A DNA stretch of 32,000 nucleotides from an uncultured Erysipelotrichaceae bacterium (lineage in GTDB: Bacteria; Bacillota_I; Bacilli_A; Erysipelotrichales; Erysipelotrichaceae): assembly GCA_942493105.1 (NCBI GenBank), contig OW818668.1, forward strand, positions 930,001 through 962,000. Direction: 5' to 3'. The notes under the pieces are model-generated. The model was not told where the DNA came from. It worked only from the letters and a program-made list of their open reading frames with translations, and searched no databases. A program made the translations under genes and the position numbers. This document shows positions 19,074 to 32,000 of this stretch, in pieces (positions within the stretch are counted from its first letter, which is position 1; every line of letters begins with the position of its first letter).

Positions 19074-19421
19074 ATGAACAAATATAAGATGATCGTTTAT
19101 ACAATGAAACAAGGTGACTCCGAGGAATATGTTGCGGAGTATCCTGCTTTAAAAGGGGTTGCTGGAGTTGGATCAAGTCCATTTGAAGCAATCGAAAATT
19201 TAATGGAAAGTGCTGAGGTCAATGTTGCAGCGCTAATTGAAGCAGGTCTTCTTGTTCCAGAAAGTGATTCACAAACAAGAAATGAATACAGCGGCAAACT
19301 ATCTGTACGATTATCAAGTAAGTTACATAGGATGGTTGCGGAGCTTTCGAAACAAGAAGGTGTTAGTATCAATCAATGTATTGTTGAAGCTGTTTCAATG
19401 TATGTAGGCAAGGTATATTAG
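19074..19421 (+). CDS. hicB: HicB-family antitoxin-like protein (HicB fold + C-terminal ribbon-helix-helix)
   Basis: YVAEYPALKGVAGVGSSPFEAIENL is a HicB-type N-terminal domain. GKLSVRLSSKLHRMVAELSKQEGVSINQCIVEAV is an RHH/Arc-like DNA-binding tail. Strong SD. Confidence 0.7.
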   Translation: MNKYKMIVYTMKQGDSEEYVAEYPALKGVAGVGSSPFEAIENLMESAEVNVAALIEAGLLVPESDSQTRNEYSGKLSVRLSSKLHRMVAELSKQEGVSINQCIVEAVSMYVGKVY

Positions 19422-19426
19422 TAGAA

Positions 19427-20311
19427 CTAAATTCCCAACTCATTGAATGTTAAAGACTCTGATATGCGGGTATAGATCCTTTTTTCATGAGTAGATTCAT
19501 GAGAACTGAACTCATAGATGCCGATGAAACGGTATAACCTTCTCCCCAAAACATCTTTACTTCGTGCAAAGGTGATTCGCAAATAATTATCTTGTCTTTC
19601 AAGCCCTTCCATTTCATTTGGATCCAGGCGATACTCTAAGATTTTGTTTCGATTATCAGCTAAAACATTAAGCCAACCATGGCTACCCTGTGATCGCAAC
19701 TCACCTTCTACAGTAGTTGCTAAATTTGGACACCAAATCCAATATTTTCCATTTAATTTGAAATATCCAGATTGTCTTTTAAAACGTACAAGACCAAATC
19801 CATTCGCAATCTCTTCGATGCGTCTAAAACGAATCTCATCTGAAACAGATAAATTTCTCTTCGTTTGTAATAATGTCGATGGGTTTTGATCAAAGTTCCA
19901 TGCTGGAACTTTTGACAGTTGAATAATTGCTTTTAGTTCCGAAACAACAGAATTGATCTGCTGATCTACGTTTTCAAAACTTTGATCCAAATCAATTCTT
20001 CTTAATATAAATTGTTTGGGTTCATCAAGGATTTCGATACTGGTTTGTATATCAAGCTGTCGGATCATATCCAAAGTGATTGTTGTCTTGTGATGAGGTT
20101 CATCGACTTCTAACCCAAAATTGATTTGAGGAAAATACATATCTAGGAGTGCGTAACTACCATTGGTGCGCTTGATGTATTGTTGAGTAACAGGCTTGAT
20201 ATCTAGGTTTCCTAATCTCTGCCAAATCGCATTGACGACATAATTCTCATAGTCTTTCTTTTTAGTTCTAGATAACGTTTTGATTAAGTAGTCGAGTTTT
20301 AGATCAATCAT
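19427..20311 (-). CDS. PvuRts1I/AbaSI-like modification-dependent (5hmC-type) restriction endonuclease, tentative
   Basis: 294 aa. The N-terminal block LLDMYFPQINFGLEVDEPHH (Asp ... E-x-D-E-x-H-H) and the C-terminal RRLYRFIGIYEF match my recollection of this family, which has a Vsr-like nuclease domain plus an SRA-like reader domain and is about 290-320 aa. Not verified by search. Confidence 0.5.
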   Translation of the reverse strand: MIDLKLDYLIKTLSRTKKKDYENYVVNAIWQRLGNLDIKPVTQQYIKRTNGSYALLDMYFPQINFGLEVDEPHHKTTITLDMIRQLDIQTSIEILDEPKQFILRRIDLDQSFENVDQQINSVVSELKAIIQLSKVPAWNFDQNPSTLLQTKRNLSVSDEIRFRRIEEIANGFGLVRFKRQSGYFKLNGKYWIWCPNLATTVEGELRSQGSHGWLNVLADNRNKILEYRLDPNEMEGLERQDNYLRITFARSKDVLGRRLYRFIGIYEFSSHESTHEKRIYTRISESLTFNELGI

Positions 20312-22297: not shown

Positions 22298-22817
22298 GGA
22301 TTATAGTAGTCTTTCACATTAAGTACTTACCTGGATTTGATGGCTCTTTTGTGGAAATTATAACGATATACATACTACCCCAGTGTCACTTTGACTGAGA
22401 TATCCTTTTTAACAAGTTTATCGACATAGGTTTATAAGAATCACAACGAAGTTTAAAAGATGTTCTATAGCGATTTTGGGATAAGGATGGAACTTGGCTA
22501 TAGGAGATGTTGTCCCATGTACTGGCACATTTAGCAGGTCATATCAATGTCAATTCAGCCTCTACAAATAGACCATTACGATTGTATAAAAACCTTGACT
22601 CTATAATATAGAAGACTTAGAATTAAAGACAGGCGAAAGCTATATTTCTATACCAATAATGGTTTGTTACTCATTGGTTAGGTGGCTTCAATTGGAATTT
22701 TTAGATTTTGATAATTTTGCGTTCATGAGTGATTTTGGTTTTGGTTTTAAAACGCATATATTTAGAAAATATACATGAGTCGGTAACTATGTTTAACAAC
22801 TAAAAAGGGTGGGAAAA

Positions 22818-23603
22818 ATGCCATATTGTCAAAATTGTGGAAAGTCAGTATCAGGAAACGCAAAGTTTTGCATTGATTGTGGTGTCACTTTAAACCTAAC
22901 AGAAGATAACGCAACTAGAAAACAAGAATTTGTGGGAAAAATATCAAAATGTCCTTCTTGTGGTGCGGGAATACCAAGTTTTACAGCGATGTGTCCGGTC
23001 TGTGGACATGAGATCAATTCTGCTCGTGTAACATCATCTATTAAGGATTTTGCAGAAAAGATGATTCAATGTGACTTAGAAATTGCTAATAGCCCTGTCA
23101 AACTTAAAAAAGGATGGAGCTCGTGGGGAAAATGGGGAAAAATCGGATGGGTTTTTCTTAACATTTCCACATTTGGAGGACCTGTAATTATTCCTTACAT
23201 ATTCAAATCATTTGGTGTTGGTGGGATTCCTACATTGACTGCAGCAGAAATGAAAAAGCTTACAATGATAGATAACTTTGCTTTCCCAAATGATCGAGAG
23301 AGTATTCTTGAAGCGCTTTTATTTATCAAATCTCAAGTATCATCACTTTCGTCTGGAAAAGTTGATCGAAGTACACAACGATGGATAGGAATCTGGAAAA
23401 ACAAAGCAGACCAGCTTTTTCAAAAAGCAGACATCATGTTTAAGGGTGACAAGATTGCTATAGATGCATATGATGTCATTGTTGAAATAGAGAAGAAAGT
23501 TAAAAAATCGCTTGGCAAAAAAAGAATTATAGGAATTGTCCTAATAATTATATTCGTCATTATAATACTTTCATACTATGCTACAAGAGAACCTTCAGTT
23601 TAA
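22818..23603 (+). CDS. Double zinc-ribbon membrane protein (YdjG-like architecture)
   Basis: MPYCQNCGKSVSGNAKFCIDCG and KCPSCGAGIPSFTAMCPVCGHEI are two CxxC...CxxC ribbons. Hydrophobic segments are GWVFLNISTFGGPVIIPYIF and the C-terminal IIGIVLIIIFVIIILSYY. The ATG at 22818 follows aagggtggg; the track ORF starts at GTG 22809. Confidence 0.65.
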   Translation: MPYCQNCGKSVSGNAKFCIDCGVTLNLTEDNATRKQEFVGKISKCPSCGAGIPSFTAMCPVCGHEINSARVTSSIKDFAEKMIQCDLEIANSPVKLKKGWSSWGKWGKIGWVFLNISTFGGPVIIPYIFKSFGVGGIPTLTAAEMKKLTMIDNFAFPNDRESILEALLFIKSQVSSLSSGKVDRSTQRWIGIWKNKADQLFQKADIMFKGDKIAIDAYDVIVEIEKKVKKSLGKKRIIGIVLIIIFVIIILSYYATREPSV

Positions 23604-23731
23604 TTCACATCAACAAACGATTGAAATCCATCATTGATGTGAGGCTTGAATAAGGTTAAAAAGCTGAACTTATTTTTGGGACAACATAAGTTTTAACAGG
23701 TAGAAATACCAGTGAAAAGGGAGGTCTAAAT

Positions 23732-25096
23732 ATGGGATTATTTGGTAAACAGAAGGCAGGTGGATTTATGGATGAAATTCGATGTGATGAACCCTCATAC
23801 TTGATTTGGAAATGGCATCCAACCGGTTCTCAACAAGGATCAAATAATAGAGAGAATGCAATAAGGTGGGGTTCTAGTCTACGTGTAAAAGATGGAGAAG
23901 CGGCTGTGTTTGTATATAATCAGAAAGATGATACGATGCAAGATTTCATCGTAGGTCCGCATGATCAGATACTGAAGACAGACAATCTACCGATCTTGGC
24001 CAGTATTGTAGGGTTGGCTTATAAGGGCGGTACTCCGTTTCAAGCTGAAGTCTATTTCATTAACTTAGCAAAAGTGATTCAAGTTCCGTTTGCGGTTCCT
24101 TTCTTTGATTTATATGACCCAAGATTCTTGGACTTTGGAATACCAACCGCTGTAAGAGGAAGAATAACATTTAATATTGCAAACTACAGAGAATTTATTA
24201 AACTACACAGACTTTCCAATTTTGACTTAAATTCATTCCAGATTCAAATACGTGATGCTGTCGCAAGATATGTTAAGGGCATTGTTACAAATGCACCATC
24301 AGAAAACAATATTCCCGTTGTACAGATCGAGCGTGAAATTCTAAAAATTAATGAGTTAGTTGAAGAAAATATTAAAGAACGATTTGAAAGAGACTTTGGT
24401 GTGAATATTACTTCTGTGGATATTACCGCTATTGAAGTAGATAAATCTAGTGTTGGTTATCATCAGTTAAAGAGTGTGACACAAGATGTTGCCTCAGCAA
24501 CTGTAAAAGCCCAAGCAGAAGTAAACATTAAGAATCTGCACGATACACAAAGAATTAATGCCGTGAATTTAGAAGAAACGATGCGTATTCAAAGAGAAGA
24601 AGCACAATATGCTCAAAGAAAGCAGTCAGAAACCTCCAATTTTGCAGCTTATCAACTTGAAAAACAAGTAGAGTTTGGTATTGCTGGTGCGGATGCATTG
24701 GGTCAGATGGGCGCAAATGGTGCCACTGAAATATCTGGCGGTGGAGGAATGAACCCGGTAGGTTTGATGACTGGAATGGCAATGGGCGGAGCTATAGGTC
24801 AAAATATGGCAGGTATGATGAATAATATGATGGGCGGAGCAAAACAAGCAGATCCTGAACTGACACCACCTCCTGTTATTGCTTCTGTGTATTATGTCGC
24901 TGTTAATGGTCAAGCAACCGGTCCATATGATATCCGTACGTTAGCTCAGATGGCAACAGTCGGGACATTTTTAAAGACAAGTTTGGTATGGAAACAAGGA
25001 ATGACAAATTGGATTTCTGCAGACACTGTCCAAGAGTTGCAATTGGTCTTTGGCAGTGAACCTTCCTCTATACCTCCAGTTCCACCAACGATTTAA
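23732..25096 (+). CDS. SPFH/Band-7 (YdjI-like, virion-core-protein-like) protein with Gly/Met-rich linker and C-terminal GYF_2 (DUF4339) domain
   Basis: The N-terminus MGLFGK...FMDEIRCDEPSYLIWKWHP and the following ~270 aa resemble B. subtilis YdjI-type SPFH proteins. The low-complexity linker is GGGGMNPVGLMTGMAMGGAIGQNMAGMMNNMMGG. The C-terminal VYYVAVNGQATGPYDIRTLAQMATVGTFLKTSLVWKQGMTNWISADTVQEL is a GYF_2 pattern. Strong SD (aagggagg). Confidence 0.7.
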   Translation: MGLFGKQKAGGFMDEIRCDEPSYLIWKWHPTGSQQGSNNRENAIRWGSSLRVKDGEAAVFVYNQKDDTMQDFIVGPHDQILKTDNLPILASIVGLAYKGGTPFQAEVYFINLAKVIQVPFAVPFFDLYDPRFLDFGIPTAVRGRITFNIANYREFIKLHRLSNFDLNSFQIQIRDAVARYVKGIVTNAPSENNIPVVQIEREILKINELVEENIKERFERDFGVNITSVDITAIEVDKSSVGYHQLKSVTQDVASATVKAQAEVNIKNLHDTQRINAVNLEETMRIQREEAQYAQRKQSETSNFAAYQLEKQVEFGIAGADALGQMGANGATEISGGGGMNPVGLMTGMAMGGAIGQNMAGMMNNMMGGAKQADPELTPPPVIASVYYVAVNGQATGPYDIRTLAQMATVGTFLKTSLVWKQGMTNWISADTVQELQLVFGSEPSSIPPVPPTI

Positions 25097-25109
25097 AGGA
25101 GTCGTTACA

Positions 25110-25460
25110 ATGAGCGATAATAATTTCTACTCAATGGATAAACTTATTGAATTTGGTATGAGTATTTCGATTGCCAGCCAAATGGCACAGTCAATGAATC
25201 GAACGATAAACCAAATGACTATTCCAGGCTCATCTAATGCTATGCTTACTCAAATAGAAACAGTTTATTATGCTGTGATAAATGGTAAGCAAGCAGGACC
25301 TTATTCATTAACTGAGTTGTCAAGATTGATTAAAGATAAGATCATTTTAAAGGAAACTTATATCTGGAAACCTGGCATGGTTCAATGGGATCTTGTAGAA
25401 AATGTTGATGTGTTATTAAGACTTGTGGCAGTAACTCCACCACCGATACCTAACCTTTAG
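25110..25460 (+). CDS. Small GYF_2 (DUF4339) domain protein
   Basis: The ATG at 25110 (MSDNNFYSM...) follows an aaaggag SD, 13 nt after the previous stop. The C-terminal VYYAVINGKQAGPYSLTELSRLIKDKIILKETYIWKPGMVQWDLVENV repeats the GYF_2 pattern. The track ORF begins further upstream, at 25050. Confidence 0.65.
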   Translation: MSDNNFYSMDKLIEFGMSISIASQMAQSMNRTINQMTIPGSSNAMLTQIETVYYAVINGKQAGPYSLTELSRLIKDKIILKETYIWKPGMVQWDLVENVDVLLRLVAVTPPPIPNL

Positions 25461-25862: not shown

Positions 25863-26206
25863 AAGACTAAAGGAAACTCAAAAACCCATTCTCAAAAATG
25901 CATGATTATATTTTTGGTTTCATGTAATAAAAAATCGTAACTGAATAAATATCTATAAAGCGTGGTTAATAAGCGAAGTATTGCATTATACGTTAATGTT
26001 TAAAAATTCTGCAGATGTATCTAAACTCAACCAAAAACTTGATTAAGTATGCTTTTTACTGATATCATAAATATACGAGAATTGTTTAATTTAAATGACT
26101 GAATACTATCTTATGTAGATCAAAAAACTCGTATCTATACAATCAATGCTTATTAAATTGAGAAAATTGTATACATTCAGTTTGTTAAATATTGTGGGGT
26201 AATACA

Positions 26207-28378
26207 ATGGTTAGGAAAGAGCCGATTTATTATCATTTGATCTTTGGGTCACTTCAGTGTAAAGAGACTTTTGGGGTTGATCTTTTATATGGTGACTACG
26301 AGTATATTATCAACCTCAATTCATCACTAATTAGTAAACTTTATTTTGAGAATTACAGTGAAGTAAAAACATATTATTGCAGTGAACTAATCAATAAATC
26401 AGAATATGAAGAACTAACACTTCTGGAATACACATTTCATAATAAAAAAGCTTTTGATTTATTACACAATCTAGCAGAAAGGCTACTTTTTCGTAATGAG
26501 GTTCAATATCTGTTTCTATGTATCGATTGCTTGTGGGTTATTGATAAATTACTAGGTTTTTATGATTTAGTTGATGAGTCTGTGTACTTAACTGTCAACT
26601 CTCGTTTAAAAAATGAGTATGATGTAGATCTTAGGTTCCACTATGCACTAACTTTTACAAGATATAAATATTTAAACGAAATGATTGCGATCGAAACAAG
26701 AAAAAAATTCAAAATTGAAAAGCTTATTCGTACTGCAATTACCACCATCGCTATCGCACATTCAATAGCAGAAGCGTTTAGACCGAATTTATACAAAATT
26801 GGGTTTCGTATTCTTGAACAAATCGATACAATTGAACTTCAAAAAATAGTTAATGAGGATAATCTGAAAACGATTATTAACGAAATATTACAATCTACTG
26901 TTTCGATCAATGAAGATGCTTTAAATTTTTATGTAACAAGACGGCTAAGTTTGAAACTAGATATGACGTTAGGTAAAAACCTCCCAAACAAAATCAAGAT
27001 TAACTACATTCAAGATAACTTAGATTTTGTATCAGCTTTAATTAAAGGCAAGATTCCTCAATCTTTTATTGCATTACAAAAAATCCTTGAAATTCTTGAA
27101 AATGACAGAATTGAGGACTTAGGTGAGAAATATAAATATCATAATTTTAATATAGGATCTTTGGTAATATATTTATTAAAGATTGATAATAGTTACACCA
27201 TTATAAGACTCTTTACAGTTCTTAAAATAATTGAGTTTGACCAGATGTATAAAGTCTGGGATCAATCAATAGGGTCAAATTATCTTGATCTATGTTATAA
27301 CTATTTAATATACAAATCAAAGACCGAAAAACACTTTAAATTAAGTAAGAATGATAAAACGTGGTTGCTATGCCTTTTAAAAGCGTTAAGGAGCGAAAAT
27401 GATTTGACTCAACCAGTTGATAGAATAGTTTTTTTGTTTAATAATATTGACTTCCTTTCCATTGATATGGAGACCATTATAGAAATATGCAAACATATTT
27501 ATGACACTGAAAAATATAAATCAACACACGATAGTATTCAATTGGCGCTAGAAGCTAGACAGTATGAACTTGTCAAATACCTAGATGCAAATAGGGAAGT
27601 AATTGATTTACTTGTTTCTAAATTCAATATTGAAAAACTTAATAAAACCAAACGATTTGTGATTATGAGACAACTTGAAAAGAATTGTGAGAGATACTTT
27701 TCTCAAATTCAAGATAGTCCTTTGGGCTATAAGATAATTGTTGCTCGAAATGCGAATGATATTCAAAAACATCAGCGTACATGTTTGTATATTGATCAGA
27801 TAAAATACATGATGAGAGAGCTAAAGGTTAGAAATATCACAGATCTTTTCCATTTCACACCAATTGATAATCTTGCGAGTATTCTTGAAAAAGGAATTAT
27901 ACCCAGAAGTTATCACAGACAACTAAAAGTTCGGTCTATTTGTACAGATTCTGAACGTTATGATCATAGATTGGAATACACTAGTTTATCAATAATGAGG
28001 CCGAATAGTAGAATGCTTTACTATAAGAGGGCTGAAAAGATTATAGTGATTTTAAGGATTGATGCTCAGATTTTGCTTAATGTAACGAACCATCCGTTAT
28101 TCTTTCAAGAAAATGCTTCTCGTTTGATATATAAAGAAAAGCCCTCAAAAGATTTTATGAATGTATCAAAATTCACAAGTTTGTTTCCAACACCGGAATC
28201 AAATATAACGTTGAGTGACCAAGCAGAGATTTTATTACCTGATATTATAGACAAGAGGTATATCAAAGAGATTATTTTTTTCACGAATTCAGATCTCCAA
28301 TTTGTGTTGAGTCATATTAAGCAAGAAAGTTTGAATGGGATAAATTTACTTATCAAGGAGGTAAGAAATGGCATCTAG
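26207..28378 (+). CDS. Large fusion protein: ~545-aa uncharacterised helical N-terminal region + C-terminal DarT-like (DUF4433) ADP-ribosyltransferase domain
   Basis: The C-terminal block (nt ~27835-28378) reads LFHFTPIDNLASILEKGIIP (compare DarT H-x-T...NL..IL), YTSLSIMRPNSRMLYY, PLFFQENAS and SDQAEILLPDII (the ARTT-type QAE glutamate, codon 28226-28228). The ATG at 26207 follows a gtggggt SD; the track ORF starts at TTG 26192. Confidence 0.65.
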   Translation: MVRKEPIYYHLIFGSLQCKETFGVDLLYGDYEYIINLNSSLISKLYFENYSEVKTYYCSELINKSEYEELTLLEYTFHNKKAFDLLHNLAERLLFRNEVQYLFLCIDCLWVIDKLLGFYDLVDESVYLTVNSRLKNEYDVDLRFHYALTFTRYKYLNEMIAIETRKKFKIEKLIRTAITTIAIAHSIAEAFRPNLYKIGFRILEQIDTIELQKIVNEDNLKTIINEILQSTVSINEDALNFYVTRRLSLKLDMTLGKNLPNKIKINYIQDNLDFVSALIKGKIPQSFIALQKILEILENDRIEDLGEKYKYHNFNIGSLVIYLLKIDNSYTIIRLFTVLKIIEFDQMYKVWDQSIGSNYLDLCYNYLIYKSKTEKHFKLSKNDKTWLLCLLKALRSENDLTQPVDRIVFLFNNIDFLSIDMETIIEICKHIYDTEKYKSTHDSIQLALEARQYELVKYLDANREVIDLLVSKFNIEKLNKTKRFVIMRQLEKNCERYFSQIQDSPLGYKIIVARNANDIQKHQRTCLYIDQIKYMMRELKVRNITDLFHFTPIDNLASILEKGIIPRSYHRQLKVRSICTDSERYDHRLEYTSLSIMRPNSRMLYYKRAEKIIVILRIDAQILLNVTNHPLFFQENASRLIYKEKPSKDFMNVSKFTSLFPTPESNITLSDQAEILLPDIIDKRYIKEIIFFTNSDLQFVLSHIKQESLNGINLLIKEVRNGI

Positions 28379-29036
28379 ACCAGTATTTGTAGCAGCCTCA
28401 TTTAAAGAACCAATTCAAGAGGTACAAACAAGTTTCACATTCTTCAGTGGCTTTTCACTAGACCAAAAGAGAAAATCAATACAATCACTACACAATTCTT
28501 ATCTTGAGAATAATCCCAATAAGAGGATCTTAGAGATATCAACAAAATCACCCGATGAATTAGGAAGAAAACTGAGTGCTTTTAATTTGTGTGTTCAAGT
28601 AAATCAGAGAATCCTTCCGCTTGAGTGCGTGTTTCAATCGTCAAAAATTTTTGAGAATGGCGGACCTTATTCTGAACTTATGTATCTTGATCCGGTTTCT
28701 GCGAAAAAGGATATGAGACTTAGAAACTCAGGCAGGTTGGTCAGTTTCAGATTTGATAACAAGGTTTTTCCCCTTGAACCAAAATCATACTTTTATGACT
28801 GTTTATATATAGAAGCAGTTCTCAACTCAACGAGTTTAGTTGATGAATTAATGTGCTATGACGCATTTACGGATATAGAGTTTAATCCCAAAAAATCATA
28901 TAATTGCCAAGCGAGATCTGCAGCCCTTTTCGTCACATTGTACAAAACAAATGAATTGAACAAATTCTTGAATGATATAGATTTTGCAAAGAAATTTTAC
29001 GATAAGGAGAACTTTCAGACATCACTCAACTTATAG
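28368..29036 (+). CDS. Candidate cognate antitoxin/reversal enzyme: 222-aa protein with a NADAR (DUF1768)-like core motif, tentative
   Basis: The ATG overlaps the upstream stop by 11 nt and has a perfect SD (aaggaggt). KLSAFNLCVQVNQRILPLECVFQSSKIF parallels the YbiA-type NADAR block FSNF-x(14-17)-SEHYFQAQKF. No macrodomain motifs are present. Confidence 0.35.
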   Translation: MASRPVFVAASFKEPIQEVQTSFTFFSGFSLDQKRKSIQSLHNSYLENNPNKRILEISTKSPDELGRKLSAFNLCVQVNQRILPLECVFQSSKIFENGGPYSELMYLDPVSAKKDMRLRNSGRLVSFRFDNKVFPLEPKSYFYDCLYIEAVLNSTSLVDELMCYDAFTDIEFNPKKSYNCQARSAALFVTLYKTNELNKFLNDIDFAKKFYDKENFQTSLNL

Positions 29037-29173
29037 TTTTAGAATTAAACTTAACACAGTTGCTTATAGAAATTTAAATAGAATGTTATAACACTTTAGA
29101 AGGTTTTCAAATTTACTATCATAATTTGGATCATCAATGCCTATTAATTAGTAATGATCTCAACTAATTTTAA

Positions 29174-29290
29174 TGTAAAGAGTCCAGATAAGGCGTCTTG
29201 CATAGTGAGCGGTTGACATACAGTACGGTTTTCTTACACATAAGAGTTGCTCTCCAACATTGGAGATCCTTGTTGATTTTTTATAGCTGA
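29174..29290 (-). repeat. Cassette-boundary repeat, copy C (contains a 23-codon relic ORF at 29170-29241)
   Basis: On the minus strand: SD ggagagc, then ATG, then MCKKTVLYVNRSLCKTPYLDSLH*. This is the shortest copy; homology starts at tgtaaagag. Confidence 0.9.
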
Positions 29291-29379
29291 TGATTGTAAT
29301 AGATTGATGTTGAATAACAGAATCAATGAGAAAATACAGAAAACTAATGGTGTATAATTAAAAATGGAGTAGGTATTCT

Positions 29380-29694
29380 ATGAAAGAAACAAAAGATAAA
29401 GTCATTAAGTTCACACATGATCGTGATTGGGATCAATTTCACTCACCTGAAAACTTAGCTAAATCAATCTCAATTGAAGCAGCTGAACTTTTAGAGTGCT
29501 TCCAATGGAACAATGACTTCAAAAAAGAAGAAGTTATTGATGAGTTGGCTGATATTGTCAATTACTGCATCCTCTTATCTGATAAGCTAGATGTTGATCT
29601 GGAAGATATTGTTTTAAGCAAACTTAAGAAGAATGAAGAAAAGTATCCAATAGAAAAATCAAAAGGGAAAAGCGACAAATATAATAAGTTGTAA
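29380..29694 (+). CDS. MazG-like all-alpha nucleoside-triphosphate pyrophosphohydrolase (DCTPP1/RS21-C6-like)
   Basis: FTHDRDWDQFHSPENLAKSISIEAAELLECFQW ... DELADIVNYCILL matches the R.W.QFH.P.NL....E..EL.E.FQW / E.AD signature of the dCTP-pyrophosphatase-type MazG family. 104 aa. Confidence 0.75.
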   Translation: MKETKDKVIKFTHDRDWDQFHSPENLAKSISIEAAELLECFQWNNDFKKEEVIDELADIVNYCILLSDKLDVDLEDIVLSKLKKNEEKYPIEKSKGKSDKYNKL

Positions 29695-29708
29695 AAGGGG
29701 GATTTCTT

Positions 29709-31385
29709 TTGGAGACCAAACTGTTTAATTTTACAGATGATGTCTTAACTAAAATAAGCGACACTGATTTTGCTGAGAAATGGCCAGTCGTTTATTTTAT
29801 TCATAATGAAAATGAAGCGTATATTGGAGAAACCACCAATATCTTAATTAGAGTTTTACAGCACAGAAAAAATCCAGAACGCAAAGAATTGAAAAAGATT
29901 TTAGTTATTACCGATAAAATGTTTAATAAATCAGCAATTATGGATATTGAGTCGCAACTTATTAAATACATAGCAGCTGATGGAAAATTCAAACTACAAA
30001 ATTTGAATTCTGGACTCCAAAATCATAATTATTACCAAAAGGATACTTATGAGAAAATATTTCGTGATTTATGGAAACATCTAAAGAAAGAGCATCTTGC
30101 GGTTTTTGATATTCAACAAATTGAAAACTCTGATCTATTCAAATATTCACCATATAAGTCATTAACAACAGATCAATATTTTACAGTAGACCTAATTCTG
30201 GATGATTTAGCAAGAAACTTTGATCAGAAAACCACAACAATTGTCAATGGTGGAGCTGGAACTGGGAAGACAGTTTTAGCAGTTTATCTCATTAAGTTGT
30301 TAAAAACTTATGATAATGTGTCACAGATCTTTGATGATGAGTTTGAAGAAGATTATGTTAAAAACATTGTTGAAATTCTTAGACAGAAACAAAACCTCAA
30401 AATTGCACTTGTCGTACCGATGACATCACTTAGGAAGACACTGAAGAAAGTGTTTAGGGGTGTAAAGGGCTTATCGGCCAGTATGGTTATTGGACCAAAT
30501 GATGTGTCTAGAGACGATTATGATATTTTGATCGTTGATGAAGCTCATCGACTAAGAAGAAGACTTAATATTACAAATTACGCAGCTTTCGATAAAATCA
30601 ATGCTGAATTAGGGTTTGGAAACGAAGGAACAGAACTAGATTGGATTATGGCTAAAAGTAAACACCAGATTTTGTTTTATGATTCAGCTCAAACAATTCG
30701 ACCAGCAGATATTAGGGAAAGTCAGTTTAGTAATTTGTATAACCAAAATGATCTGTTTAAACAGTACGATCTGACTTCTCAGATGAGAAGTATGGGTGGG
30801 CAAGATTATATTAATTACGTTAAGCAAATGTTTGCTTGTAACCCTAATCTGCAGAGAATTGTATTTGAAAATTATGAATTCAGAATCTTTGATAATGTAA
30901 AAGATATGTATGACGAAATCAAAAAGAAAGATAGCGAAGTTGGATTATCTAGAATGGTTGCTGGATATGGTTGGGAATGGATTTCAAAAGGTAAATCATT
31001 AGAGTCAATTGTGAACAATGATCTATTCGATATCAGAATTCAAGGTCAGAAGTTTATTTGGAATACCACCAATAAAGACTGGGTTAACTCAAAAAATGCA
31101 TTAAATGAAATTGGGTGTATTCATACTACTCAGGGATATGATTTGAACTATGTTGGTATTATCATAGGAAATGAACTTACTTTTGATCCAATAGCGAATC
31201 AAATGGTGATAGATAAAGAACACTACTATGATCGAAATGGATTGACTAACATCGAAAACTATCAAGAATTGAAAGATTACATACTAAATATCTATTCAAC
31301 TCTATTCCTTCGCGGAATAAAGGGGACATATGTTTATGTTTGTCACAAAGATTTGAGGGAGTATTTAAGGAAATTCCTTGGATAA
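29709..31385 (+). CDS. GIY-YIG nuclease domain + DUF2075 (Schlafen-type) P-loop ATPase/helicase-like protein
   Basis: N-terminal VVYFIHNENEAYIGETTNILIRVLQH...IESQLI is a GIY-YIG pattern. Walker A is GGAGTGKT (nt 30249-30272) and Walker B is ILIVDEAHRL. TTG start 7 nt after aaaggggg, 14 nt after the MazG stop. Confidence 0.7.
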   Translation: METKLFNFTDDVLTKISDTDFAEKWPVVYFIHNENEAYIGETTNILIRVLQHRKNPERKELKKILVITDKMFNKSAIMDIESQLIKYIAADGKFKLQNLNSGLQNHNYYQKDTYEKIFRDLWKHLKKEHLAVFDIQQIENSDLFKYSPYKSLTTDQYFTVDLILDDLARNFDQKTTTIVNGGAGTGKTVLAVYLIKLLKTYDNVSQIFDDEFEEDYVKNIVEILRQKQNLKIALVVPMTSLRKTLKKVFRGVKGLSASMVIGPNDVSRDDYDILIVDEAHRLRRRLNITNYAAFDKINAELGFGNEGTELDWIMAKSKHQILFYDSAQTIRPADIRESQFSNLYNQNDLFKQYDLTSQMRSMGGQDYINYVKQMFACNPNLQRIVFENYEFRIFDNVKDMYDEIKKKDSEVGLSRMVAGYGWEWISKGKSLESIVNNDLFDIRIQGQKFIWNTTNKDWVNSKNALNEIGCIHTTQGYDLNYVGIIIGNELTFDPIANQMVIDKEHYYDRNGLTNIENYQELKDYILNIYSTLFLRGIKGTYVYVCHKDLREYLRKFLG

Positions 31386-31793
31386 ATGTTTGAAAGGTTA
31401 AATATGGAAACAATCAAAGTAGTGGCTGCCTTAATTAAGGATGCAGATAAATATCTCATTGGATTAAGGTCAACTGGTAAGTACAAAGGATTTTGGGAAT
31501 TCCCTGGGGGAAAAATTGAGGAGAATGAAGAACTCGAAGATGCATTAATGCGTGAGATTTATGAAGAGTTTGAAATCAATATAAGTATAGAAAAACTTCT
31601 TTTCAAAATCGAATACACTTATCCAGAGTTTATTCTTGAGATGTATTGTTTCTTGACTACCTCTTTAGACAAAGAATTTGTATTAAATGACCATAGTGAA
31701 ACAATGTGGTTTGACCCTAAAAACGATATCGAGATCAATTGGTTACCAGCGGATCTCAAAATTGTTGAATTATTGAAATGTGCTAATTTTTAG
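31386..31793 (+). CDS. Nudix hydrolase, MutT/NudG-like (deoxy)nucleoside-triphosphate pyrophosphohydrolase
   Basis: Nudix box GGKIEENEELEDALMREIYEEFEI (GX5EX7REUXEEXGU). The ATG abuts the upstream TAA. An alternative ATG at 31404 (METIKVV...) has a gaaagg SD. Confidence 0.8.
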   Translation: MFERLNMETIKVVAALIKDADKYLIGLRSTGKYKGFWEFPGGKIEENEELEDALMREIYEEFEINISIEKLLFKIEYTYPEFILEMYCFLTTSLDKEFVLNDHSETMWFDPKNDIEINWLPADLKIVELLKCANF

Positions 31794-31980
31794 TGTTTCC
31801 AATATTAGTTGTTAATTCTGAATACAAATTCTGAGGAATTTCGTTTTCGAATTTCAAAATAATCGTAATAGGTCGGTTGCTTTTTTTATCATAATCAACC
31901 GTATTTGCTTTTCCCAAATATATAGGGTTCTGAAGTTCCATCAATTTTCTTGAACTTGCGGACAAAAATATGTAGTACAT
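31783..31980 (-). CDS. Hypothetical 65-aa protein (weak call)
   Basis: ORF only. An in-frame stop lies just upstream of the ATG, there is no recognisable motif, and it overlaps the Nudix 3' end by 11 nt. Confidence 0.2.
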   Translation of the reverse strand: MYYIFLSASSRKLMELQNPIYLGKANTVDYDKKSNRPITIILKFENEIPQNLYSELTTNIGNTKN

Positions 31981-32000
31981 AGCCGTTATCTAAATTGAAT

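Follow-up and report, generated by a model that had tools for sequence, protein, structure and literature searches.

A MazG-like pyrophosphatase/nuclease-helicase gene pair adjoining a Nudix gene with a SauUSI-like type IV restriction neighbor in a candidate defense island of an Erysipelotrichaceae bacterium

Introduction

Near the end of a 32,000-nucleotide (nt) stretch of DNA from an uncultured Erysipelotrichaceae bacterium (assembly GCA_942493105.1, contig OW818668.1, positions 930,001 to 962,000; the whole stretch is hereafter called the window), three consecutive genes encode a MazG-like pyrophosphatase (gene 1), a GIY-YIG nuclease fused to a DUF2075 helicase (gene 2), and a Nudix hydrolase (gene 3). 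A first-pass annotation had read them as a single cassette that degrades the deoxynucleoside triphosphates (dNTPs) of phages and cuts phage DNA, and the question raised by this locus is whether the three genes indeed act as one system or belong to separate units that have come to lie side by side. We observed that the evolutionary unit is the pair of MazG and nuclease-helicase genes, not the trio, and that the Nudix gene is most often linked to a type IV restriction gene of the SauUSI type. The reading that we favor, at slightly better than even confidence, is that the region is the junction of two mobile two-gene modules in a defense island: module A joins MazG to a nuclease-helicase effector, module B joins Nudix to a SauUSI-type enzyme, and both share the logic of an ATP-driven nuclease accompanied by a modified-dNTP pyrophosphatase. 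An anti-phage role is likely, and it would probably be aimed at viruses with modified cytosine.

Results

The Nuclease-Helicase Gene Is Paired with MazG across Phyla

Homologs of gene 2 were surveyed on contigs representing one genome per species, and the best-scoring 80 of at least 597 matching loci were analyzed. These homologs are 44-52% identical to gene 2 and spread through Bacilli, Clostridia, Bacteroidota, Patescibacteria, Gammaproteobacteria, and an archaeon. A MazG homolog was located immediately upstream and in the same orientation in 78 of the 80 loci, with a median gap of about 20 nt, and the exceptions include contigs that end at that point. A Nudix homolog, in contrast, adjoined the pair in none of the 80 loci and was found within 6 kb of it in three. 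It is this difference that identifies the pair as the unit, and the co-occurrence of all three genes implied by a single cassette was not borne out. In all-against-all clustering of the open reading frames (ORFs) within 4 kb, the MazG and nuclease-helicase families alone recurred beyond a handful of loci, and the 149 immediate neighbor proteins matched 135 Pfam families, none of them in more than six loci; together, these two scans ruled out a conserved third gene.

The pair is also kept at 32% identity on megaplasmids of the Bacillus cereus group, in which its members are annotated as "nucleotide pyrophosphohydrolase" and "DUF2075 domain-containing protein", and MazG proteins orthologous to gene 1 (51-56% identity) are additionally paired with DUF2075 proteins bearing other nuclease domains. 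The gene 2 family comprises 421 clusters at 50% identity that reach E ≤ 1e-30, and in viral data it was seen in 6 of 2.9 million contigs and in four weak phage records, a near-absence on which a phage origin was rejected.

Directly downstream of the pair, four loci (L009:7586-8566, L064:7698-8666, L078:8162-9136, and L007:3378-3578; L numbers are our locus labels) carry a gene whose product unites an HNH endonuclease with a HIT nucleotide hydrolase, which represents a third way to join a nuclease with a nucleotide hydrolase. On plasmid pBMB431 of B. thuringiensis HD-1 (L174, 309362-322921), genes for a Nudix "(deoxy)nucleoside triphosphate pyrophosphohydrolase", a zeta toxin, an HNH endonuclease, MazG, and a DUF2075 protein were found within 6 kb, and on plasmid p419 of B. 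mycoides the pair is flanked on both sides by HNH genes. The Bacillus HNH genes exhibited no detectable relationship to the HNH-HIT gene of the four loci.

The Nudix Gene Is Most Often Linked to a SauUSI-Like Type IV Restriction Gene

The converse scan, centered on the Nudix gene, covered 80 loci from metagenome contigs at 36-46% identity. MazG or DUF2075 genes were near the Nudix gene in only three of them, and its main partner was a SauUSI-like type IV restriction gene, which adjoined it in 38 loci and lay directly upstream on the same strand in 31 of these. When only Nudix loci flanked by 1.5 kb or more on each side are counted, 24 out of 42 have such a neighbor, and many other Nudix loci show the end of a SauUSI-like gene just 20-50 nt 5' of the Nudix start. 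The same holds wherever a Nudix gene lies within 6 kb of a MazG/nuclease-helicase pair: in the three loci concerned, as well as in two relatives of the window at 78-80% identity (L081 and L082), a SauUSI-like gene always abuts the Nudix gene. In both relatives the block of MazG, helicase, and Nudix genes is followed by a convergent gene of about 950 codons that runs 11 nt into the Nudix stop, and the left flanks of the block are not alike.

In the window, this neighbor falls outside the three genes of the first-pass annotation. The last 218 bases hold the C-terminus (about 70 codons) of a SauUSI-like gene, split over two frames, as revealed by tblastn with the L081 protein and by frame translations. 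The L081 homolog (about 950 amino acids, aa) combines a PLD nuclease, an SF2 helicase, and DUF3427, which is the domain set of SauUSI, and matches PADLOC mREase_IV at 8.5e-152. SauUSI is described as cutting DNA that contains 5-methylcytosine (5mC) or 5-hydroxymethylcytosine (5hmC) (PMC3141236). When aligned with the DNA of L081 and L082, the window gene exhibits a 2-nt gap in a TATATA run near 31920, and the frame shifts about 47 codons before the stop; this apparent frameshift would make the gene a pseudogene or phase-variable, unless it stems from an assembly error.

Other genes that abut the Nudix gene encode a different DUF2075 protein, PDC-S41 (1e-249 and 1e-233), or a Mokosh-type helicase-nuclease (MkoC, 1e-294, or an SF1 helicase with DUF2726). 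In a survey of Streptococcus suis, PDC-S07, the PADLOC candidate that gene 3 matches, was at most 20 genes away from a type IV restriction-modification gene in 23 of 23 cases. The best-supported conclusion is that the Nudix gene belongs functionally with modification-dependent nucleases, the linkage being observed and its purpose being what we infer.

In two loci (L113:687-2807 and L156:1815-3803), the Nudix gene is joined in one operon to that of a PDC-S41 protein, which belongs to a different DUF2075 subfamily, and MazG is absent; MazG and Nudix seem to be interchangeable as partners of DUF2075 proteins. In another (L094:379-1714), a MazG gene is followed directly by the gene for a 327-aa protein whose N-terminal half is a PDC-S07 Nudix domain (5e-48) and whose C-terminal half matches PADLOC mad2.

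These distributions bear on the possibility that the three genes constitute one integrated defense system, whose nuclease-helicase requires both hydrolases. The co-orientation of the genes, their gaps of 14 and 18 nt, and the retention of the block in the two relatives despite different left flanks agree with such a system, as does the recurrence of MazG and Nudix-family genes close together in L094, L109, and L115 and on pBMB431, with the Nudix gene 3.5 kb upstream. It is contradicted from both sides, by the rarity of Nudix near the pair (adjoining in 0/80, within 6 kb in 3/80, and then, as in L081/L082, always abutting a SauUSI-like gene) and by that of MazG or DUF2075 near Nudix (3/80). Since each is rarely found near the other, the trio is lineage-specific, and we regard an integrated system of three as distinctly unlikely. 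What holds of the single cassette is its tight, co-oriented arrangement and its conservation in the two relatives.

Gene 1 Has the Conserved Residues of DCTPP1-Type Pyrophosphatases

The three ORFs and the domain calls of the first-pass annotation were upheld by Pfam, alignment, and structural comparison. Gene 1 matched the MazG-like family PF12643 at 7e-20 (71.5 bits against a cut-off of 27), and the closest solved structures were mouse/human DCTPP1 (RS21-C6; 1.3e-16) and the archaeal pyrophosphatase 4qgp (1.1e-16). The ExxE...ExxD metal site of the DCTPP1-type MazG fold is present, and E33, E36, E39, E55, D58, W17, H21, and W43 are at least 95% conserved across 79 MazG partner proteins, in which both the metal-binding Glu/Asp and the aromatic pocket residues of the family are retained. 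By its similarity to DCTPP1, gene 1 would act on non-canonical pyrimidine dNTPs, most likely 5-modified dCTP. It had no match among the PADLOC profiles.

A toxin/antidote explanation of the abortive infection kind was also considered, in which the nuclease-helicase is self-toxic and is kept in check by MazG, which may, for instance, destroy an activating nucleotide, up to the point at which infection perturbs the nucleotide pool. In E. coli, MazG is part of the mazEF toxin-antitoxin operon, and the pairing described here is obligate with the small gene first. A homologous construct (SG193) failed cloning, which is weak evidence, and one S. aureus homolog of the defense protein Nhi is toxic when induced. 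Against this explanation, the catalytic and base-pocket residues of MazG fit dNTP sanitizers of the DCTPP1 type and not a signaling hydrolase, and neither neighbor clustering nor the Pfam scan detected a conserved signal-generating enzyme nearby. Hence, we consider it improbable to a high degree.

Gene 3 Resembles an Enzyme Acting on 5-Modified Cytidine Nucleotides

Gene 3 matched NUDIX_4 at 5e-14 and NUDIX at 1e-12. Its Nudix box, which had been called perfect, retains all catalytic residues in REIYEEFEI, the final consensus G being replaced by E. The sole PADLOC match was the single-gene candidate PDC-S07, at 8.6e-41 and over the full length (aa 6-131 on profile positions 2-129 of 135). As a NudG or MutT equivalog, the protein was rejected, scoring under the NCBIfam cut-offs (68 bits vs 156 for NudG; 63.5 vs 148 for MutT). 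Among solved structures, B. fragilis Q5LBB1 (PDB 3GWY) is the closest, with 39% identity over 123 residues (6e-23); this enzyme hydrolyzes 5-Me-CTP, 5-Me-dCTP, and 5-hydroxymethyl-dCTP with a kcat/Km of 4-7e6 M-1 s-1 (about 5e6 for the two deoxynucleotides) and acts far less efficiently on canonical NTPs. From this 39%-identical enzyme, gene 3 is predicted to hydrolyze 5-methyl- and 5-hydroxymethyl-dCTP.

The leaning of both hydrolases toward cytosine nucleotides, already suggested in the first-pass annotation, is upheld by the DCTPP1 match of MazG and by the relationship of the Nudix protein to an enzyme measured on 5-methyl- and 5-hydroxymethyl-dCTP. The accompanying idea that canonical dNTP pools are depleted found no support, both hydrolase families being known as sanitizers of non-canonical NTPs. 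In the PADLOC scan, genes 1 and 3 exhibited no homology to the known nucleotide-depletion defense enzymes (dCTP deaminase and dGTPase).

Gene 2 Combines an Intact GIY-YIG Nuclease with an SF1B Helicase

The helicase part of gene 2 was assigned to PF09848 (SLFN-g3 helicase / DUF2075) at 1.4e-62, and the nuclease part to PF01541 (GIY-YIG) at 1.2e-4 over aa 27-86, barely exceeding the gathering score. In an alignment of 28 homologs, Y29, Y38/G40, R48, E81, N98, K187, D277/E278, and H280 were invariant, and so were the Walker A motif (GGAGTGKT, 30249-30272), DEAH (30537-30548), and the later helicase motifs. An AlphaFold2 model (predicted local distance difference test, pLDDT, 85; predicted template modeling score, pTM, 0.85) produced as top Foldseek matches in the PDB the helicases Upf1, Dna2, SLFN14, Dda, and RecD2, all of superfamily 1B (SF1B). 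The structure was predicted and compared by fold since searching PDB sequences with a profile of the gene 2 family retrieved nothing at E ≤ 0.01. PADLOC PDC-S14 matched the GIY-YIG part only (3.8e-9). In one homolog (P0147, 730 aa), about 170 extra residues precede the GIY-YIG domain and resemble, by eye, an HsdR-N-type PD-(D/E)XK nuclease; if this assignment is true, the protein bears two nucleases on one helicase.

The window protein is a short form. In 47 of the 80 homologs, an additional C-terminal Peptidase_S24 domain of the LexA/UmuD type (150-173 aa) was detected (among others in L003, L011-L014, L016-L018, L020, L022, L023, and L025-L031; e.g., L011:5995-8013 and L026:5974-8166). Its serine, in a G[DE]SM motif, and its lysine are conserved, and a LexA-like AAG/CG site is located just upstream, which suggests that these homologs may undergo RecA-stimulated self-cleavage.

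This domain is one reason to consider genome maintenance linked to housekeeping or the SOS response, in which the pyrophosphatases would sanitize damaged or aberrant dNTPs, the nuclease-helicase would process damaged DNA or stalled forks, and S24 self-cleavage stimulated by RecA would provide regulation in many species. Besides the 47 S24-bearing homologs with their Ser-Lys dyad and cleavage-like site, this account is in line with the established house-cleaning function of MazG/DCTPP1 and NudG/MutT-type enzymes, with the location of some loci among core genes, and with a related pair (SG192, see below) that gave no defense. It fits poorly with the patchy distribution across phyla at 44-52% identity, with carriage on plasmids, with a low-GC island in whose variable flanks DarTG, type IV, Abi, Fic, and retron genes abound, and with a helicase core related to Nhi and AbiO; moreover, the window gene itself lacks the S24 domain. 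We judge genome maintenance to be an unlikely explanation.

Layout and Transcription Signals

The three genes are all on the + strand (table 1). The 14-nt gap between genes 1 and 2 was correctly noted in the first-pass annotation, which had placed genes 2 and 3 without any gap. The true Nudix start is probably the ATG at 31404, leaving 18 nt, and this start is preferred since the public annotation of the genome gives a 129-aa product, homologs begin at the equivalent Met, and GAAAGG is located 7 nt 5' of the ATG. A TATAAT hexamer, proposed as the box of a promoter specific to the cassette, does exist one base away from the position first reported (29352-29357); as it has no usable -35 and the promoter-like sites in the region numbered 16 against 15.2 expected from shuffled sequence, which is the level of chance, an own promoter was dropped as evidence. 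A stronger argument for a separate transcription unit comes from the 343-nt spacer between the upstream NADAR gene and gene 1 and from the terminator-like hairpin within it, at which the upstream DarT/NADAR unit likely ends.

Table 1. Coordinates of the Three Genes, Their Domains, and Adjacent Features in the Window
Feature	Coordinates	Strand	Basis and remarks
Terminator-like hairpin and T-run	29251..29276 (hairpin 29251-29266)	+	Consensus scan and sequence; weak, pattern-only
TATAAT, -10-like hexamer	29353..29358	+	21 nt 5' of gene 1 start; without convincing -35
Gene 1, MazG-like all-alpha NTP pyrophosphohydrolase, DCTPP1/RS21-C6 type, 104 aa	29380..29694	+	PF12643, 7e-20; conserved partner of gene 2
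Gene 2, GIY-YIG nuclease fused to SF1B helicase (DUF2075 / SLFN-g3), 558 aa, TTG start	29709..31385	+	Pfam, alignment, AlphaFold2, Foldseek
GIY-YIG nuclease domain of gene 2, catalytic residues intact (Y29, Y38-I-G40, R48, E81, N98)	29787..30002	+	PF01541, invariant columns
SF1B helicase core of gene 2	30231..31343	+	PF09848, aa 175-545; Walker A, DEAH, later motifs IHTTQG and RG
Gene 3, NudG-like Nudix hydrolase, 129 aa (alternative start 31386, 135 aa)	31404..31793	+	Pfam, PDC-S07; Nudix box 31509-31577
3' end of SauUSI-type type IV restriction gene (PLD nuclease, SF2 helicase, DUF3427)	31783..32000	-	Convergent; overlaps Nudix stop by 11 nt

The Surrounding Genomic Island

The defense-island setting proposed in the first-pass annotation was supported by the genes around the cassette, by base composition, and by the variable flanks of the relatives. 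DarT and NADAR genes lie directly upstream, a PvuRts1I/SRA enzyme is encoded 10 kb upstream, and beyond the latter ordinary metabolic genes were found. The GC content is 0.29-0.33 over 26-32 kb against about 0.38 in the first 25 kb, and this drop across 26000-32000 is consistent with horizontal acquisition of the block from DarTG to the type IV gene. A Beta_elim_lyase gene borders the island in the window as well as in L081 and L082, and the genes inserted there differ (UvrD helicase, Abi_2, an AAA_21-type ATPase, and UvrD_C_2 with DUF2290). Near other members of the pair we observed AAA_21 with RloB, Fic/SoFic, AIPR, a second DUF2075 gene, PLD-helicases, retron reverse transcriptases, and AbiEii, together with a PADLOC "dCTPase" match, MazF-type toxins, and several PADLOC candidates; some pair loci are small insertions among core genes. 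The pair neighborhoods thus look like defense islands, although these genes, taken in part from a batch scan of the 149 neighbors, are examples and not a statistic.

Three further features of the island were recorded. In the DarT/NADAR block (26192-29036, +), the DarT gene encodes a 728-aa protein with the DarT domain only in the last ~170 residues, after a long uncharacterized N-terminal region, and the antitoxin gene, of the DarT1-associated NADAR type, overlaps its end by 11 nt. The stretch that separates DarT from the core Beta_elim_lyase gene contains, at 22809-25460 (+), a gene with a double zinc ribbon, then one with SPFH/Band-7 + GYF_2 domains, and lastly a short GYF_2 ORF; these may comprise another island cassette. 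The PvuRts1I-like enzyme (19427-20311, -) joins a PvuRts1I-like N-terminal domain to an SRA domain, as 5hmC-dependent type IV enzymes do, and lies beside a HicB-family gene (19074-19421, +); it represents a second nuclease directed at modified cytosine in the window.

Relationship to Known Defense Systems

Among validated systems, Nhi of S. epidermidis (SERP2475; Bari et al. 2022) is a single gene combining a PD-(D/E)XK nuclease with DUF2075, in which both activities are needed and which limits phage DNA accumulation; Nhi-like (SG141; Millman et al. 2022) has the same layout and an unrelated sequence. Like both, gene 2 joins a nuclease at the N-terminus to a DUF2075 SF1 helicase with intact ATPase motifs, and like Nhi it has SF1B helicases (Dda, Upf1, and Dna2) as structural neighbors and occurs in defense islands and on plasmids. 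It differs in having GIY-YIG in place of the HsdR-like PD-(D/E)XK nuclease, and its near-obligate MazG partner (78/80) argues against a stand-alone unit such as Nhi. At E ≤ 0.01, the PADLOC Nhi model did not retrieve the window protein. Its homolog in L011 matched Nhi (3e-16) and AbiO (5e-14) through the helicase core alone, which indicates that the core is distantly related to those of Nhi and AbiO.

The view of DUF2075 as the helicase module of Schlafen proteins also proved true in part. The PF09848 fold is shared with eukaryotic SLFN11/14 and prokaryotic Slfn, and SLFN14 is among the best structural matches. Gene 2, however, lacks the tRNA-cleaving Schlafen nuclease: a ribonuclease domain of the AlbA_2 type was not found in it, Pfam giving the PF09848 helicase as its Schlafen-type part. 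Published bacterial Schlafen systems are defined by the nuclease and not by the helicase, and the nearest defense relatives of gene 2 are Nhi, AbiO, and PDC-S41.

A combination comparable to module A appears in Table S2 of Millman et al. (2022) as the "Pyrophosphatase" candidate system, composed of a MazG-like and a DUF2075 protein, and this supplementary table was the only prior mention of a MazG and DUF2075 pairing that we found. As in our locus, where the gap is 14 nt, the two genes adjoin each other, and the "pyrophosphatase" of construct SG193 shares 51% identity with gene 1. Gene 2, by contrast, is only 26% identical to SG192 in the helicase core, SG192 having a PD-(D/E)XK-like N-terminus and belonging to a different DUF2075 subfamily. 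The MazG + GIY-YIG/DUF2075 pair is not among the PADLOC 2023 models, and full-text literature searches found no paper describing it or its S24 variants. Nevertheless, the Sorek laboratory chose pyrophosphatase plus DUF2075 as a defense-island candidate, Lutz et al. (2019) noted both DUF2075 NTPases beside DUF3427 modification-dependent enzymes and GIY-YIG/DUF2075 fusions, and DefensePredictor (2026) lists MazG among the predicted defense domains without experimental validation.

Regarding module B, gene 3 is like PDC-S07 in matching its profile over the full length, and is unlike the single-gene entry of PADLOC in being coupled, as in 38/80 other loci, to a type IV restriction gene and elsewhere to other helicase-nucleases; its convergent neighbor resembles SauUSI-type type IV enzymes in its PLD, helicase, and DUF3427 domains. 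By homology, genes 1 and 3 are related to sanitizers of the 5-modified-dCTP pool (DCTPP1/RS21-C6, E. coli NudG, and B. fragilis Q5LBB1). Unlike these stand-alone housekeeping genes, they are embedded in mobile nuclease-helicase modules.

Discussion

The reading of the locus as two adjoining modules suggests the following mechanism. Gene 2 would be the effector, loading on DNA, translocating at the expense of ATP, and cutting phage DNA or replication intermediates with its GIY-YIG domain, as Nhi does with another nuclease; this role is proposed from homology and from the intact motifs. MazG would remove non-canonical pyrimidine dNTPs, most likely 5-modified dCTP, and gene 3 would remove 5-methyl- and 5-hydroxymethyl-dCTP. 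The Nudix gene, usually the companion of a SauUSI-type enzyme dependent on 5mC or 5hmC, may have become co-transcribed with module A in this lineage. Clearing modified dCTP could starve phages that build modified-cytosine DNA, and it could likewise prevent modified cytosine from salvage from entering the host chromosome, to which the cell's own nuclease would otherwise be drawn; the two purposes are non-exclusive and both fit. The anti-phage role, the DNA target of gene 2, the substrate of MazG, and the weight of either pool-clearing effect are what we infer here.

An argument for a real functional coupling between DNA attack and modified-dNTP clearing is that the pairing has been built twice from unrelated hydrolase folds, and with several nuclease-helicase types. 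Retention of the catalytic residues in both module A proteins speaks for the two-module reading. Several observations weigh against that reading. MazG and Nudix families are classic housekeeping sanitizers. Gene 2 has no recognizable domain for reading modified bases, its helicase part has no PADLOC match, and the S24 domain in 47/80 homologs could equally indicate a role in SOS or repair. The 80 gene 2 loci are the top-scoring ones and not a random sample, and the island setting comes with no enrichment figure. Finally, the published tests of the related pair did not favor defense, SG192 (Bacillus firmus, PD-(D/E)XK-type DUF2075) giving none and the cloning of SG193 (B. thuringiensis) having failed (Millman et al. 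2022).

A broader proposal may be drawn from the two modules, namely that modified-dNTP pyrophosphatases, whether MazG or Nudix, are dedicated partners of ATP-driven defense nucleases that, by destroying 5-methyl- and 5-hydroxymethyl-dCTP, both prevent self-restriction and starve modified-DNA phages, and that the MazG + GIY-YIG/DUF2075 pair is an unrecognized, widespread type IV-like restriction system, which in about half of its members would be switched on when RecA stimulates the self-cleavage of a LexA-type domain. We put this forward as a tentative generalization that we consider unlikely.

Nuclease-helicase defense proteins such as Nhi, Hna, Mokosh, and the type IV enzymes are known, and the present locus bears on why some of them are accompanied by a nucleotide pyrophosphatase. 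As a hypothesis, and with the published test of a cousin negative, the MazG + GIY-YIG/DUF2075 pair, common and present in many phyla, offers a concrete and clonable candidate. If pool clearing shields the host from its own modification-dependent nucleases, these pyrophosphatases would be a new kind of immunity factor, and if it starves phages with modified cytosine, they would be a new layer of defense; either role would also explain PDC-S07, an orphan candidate of PADLOC.

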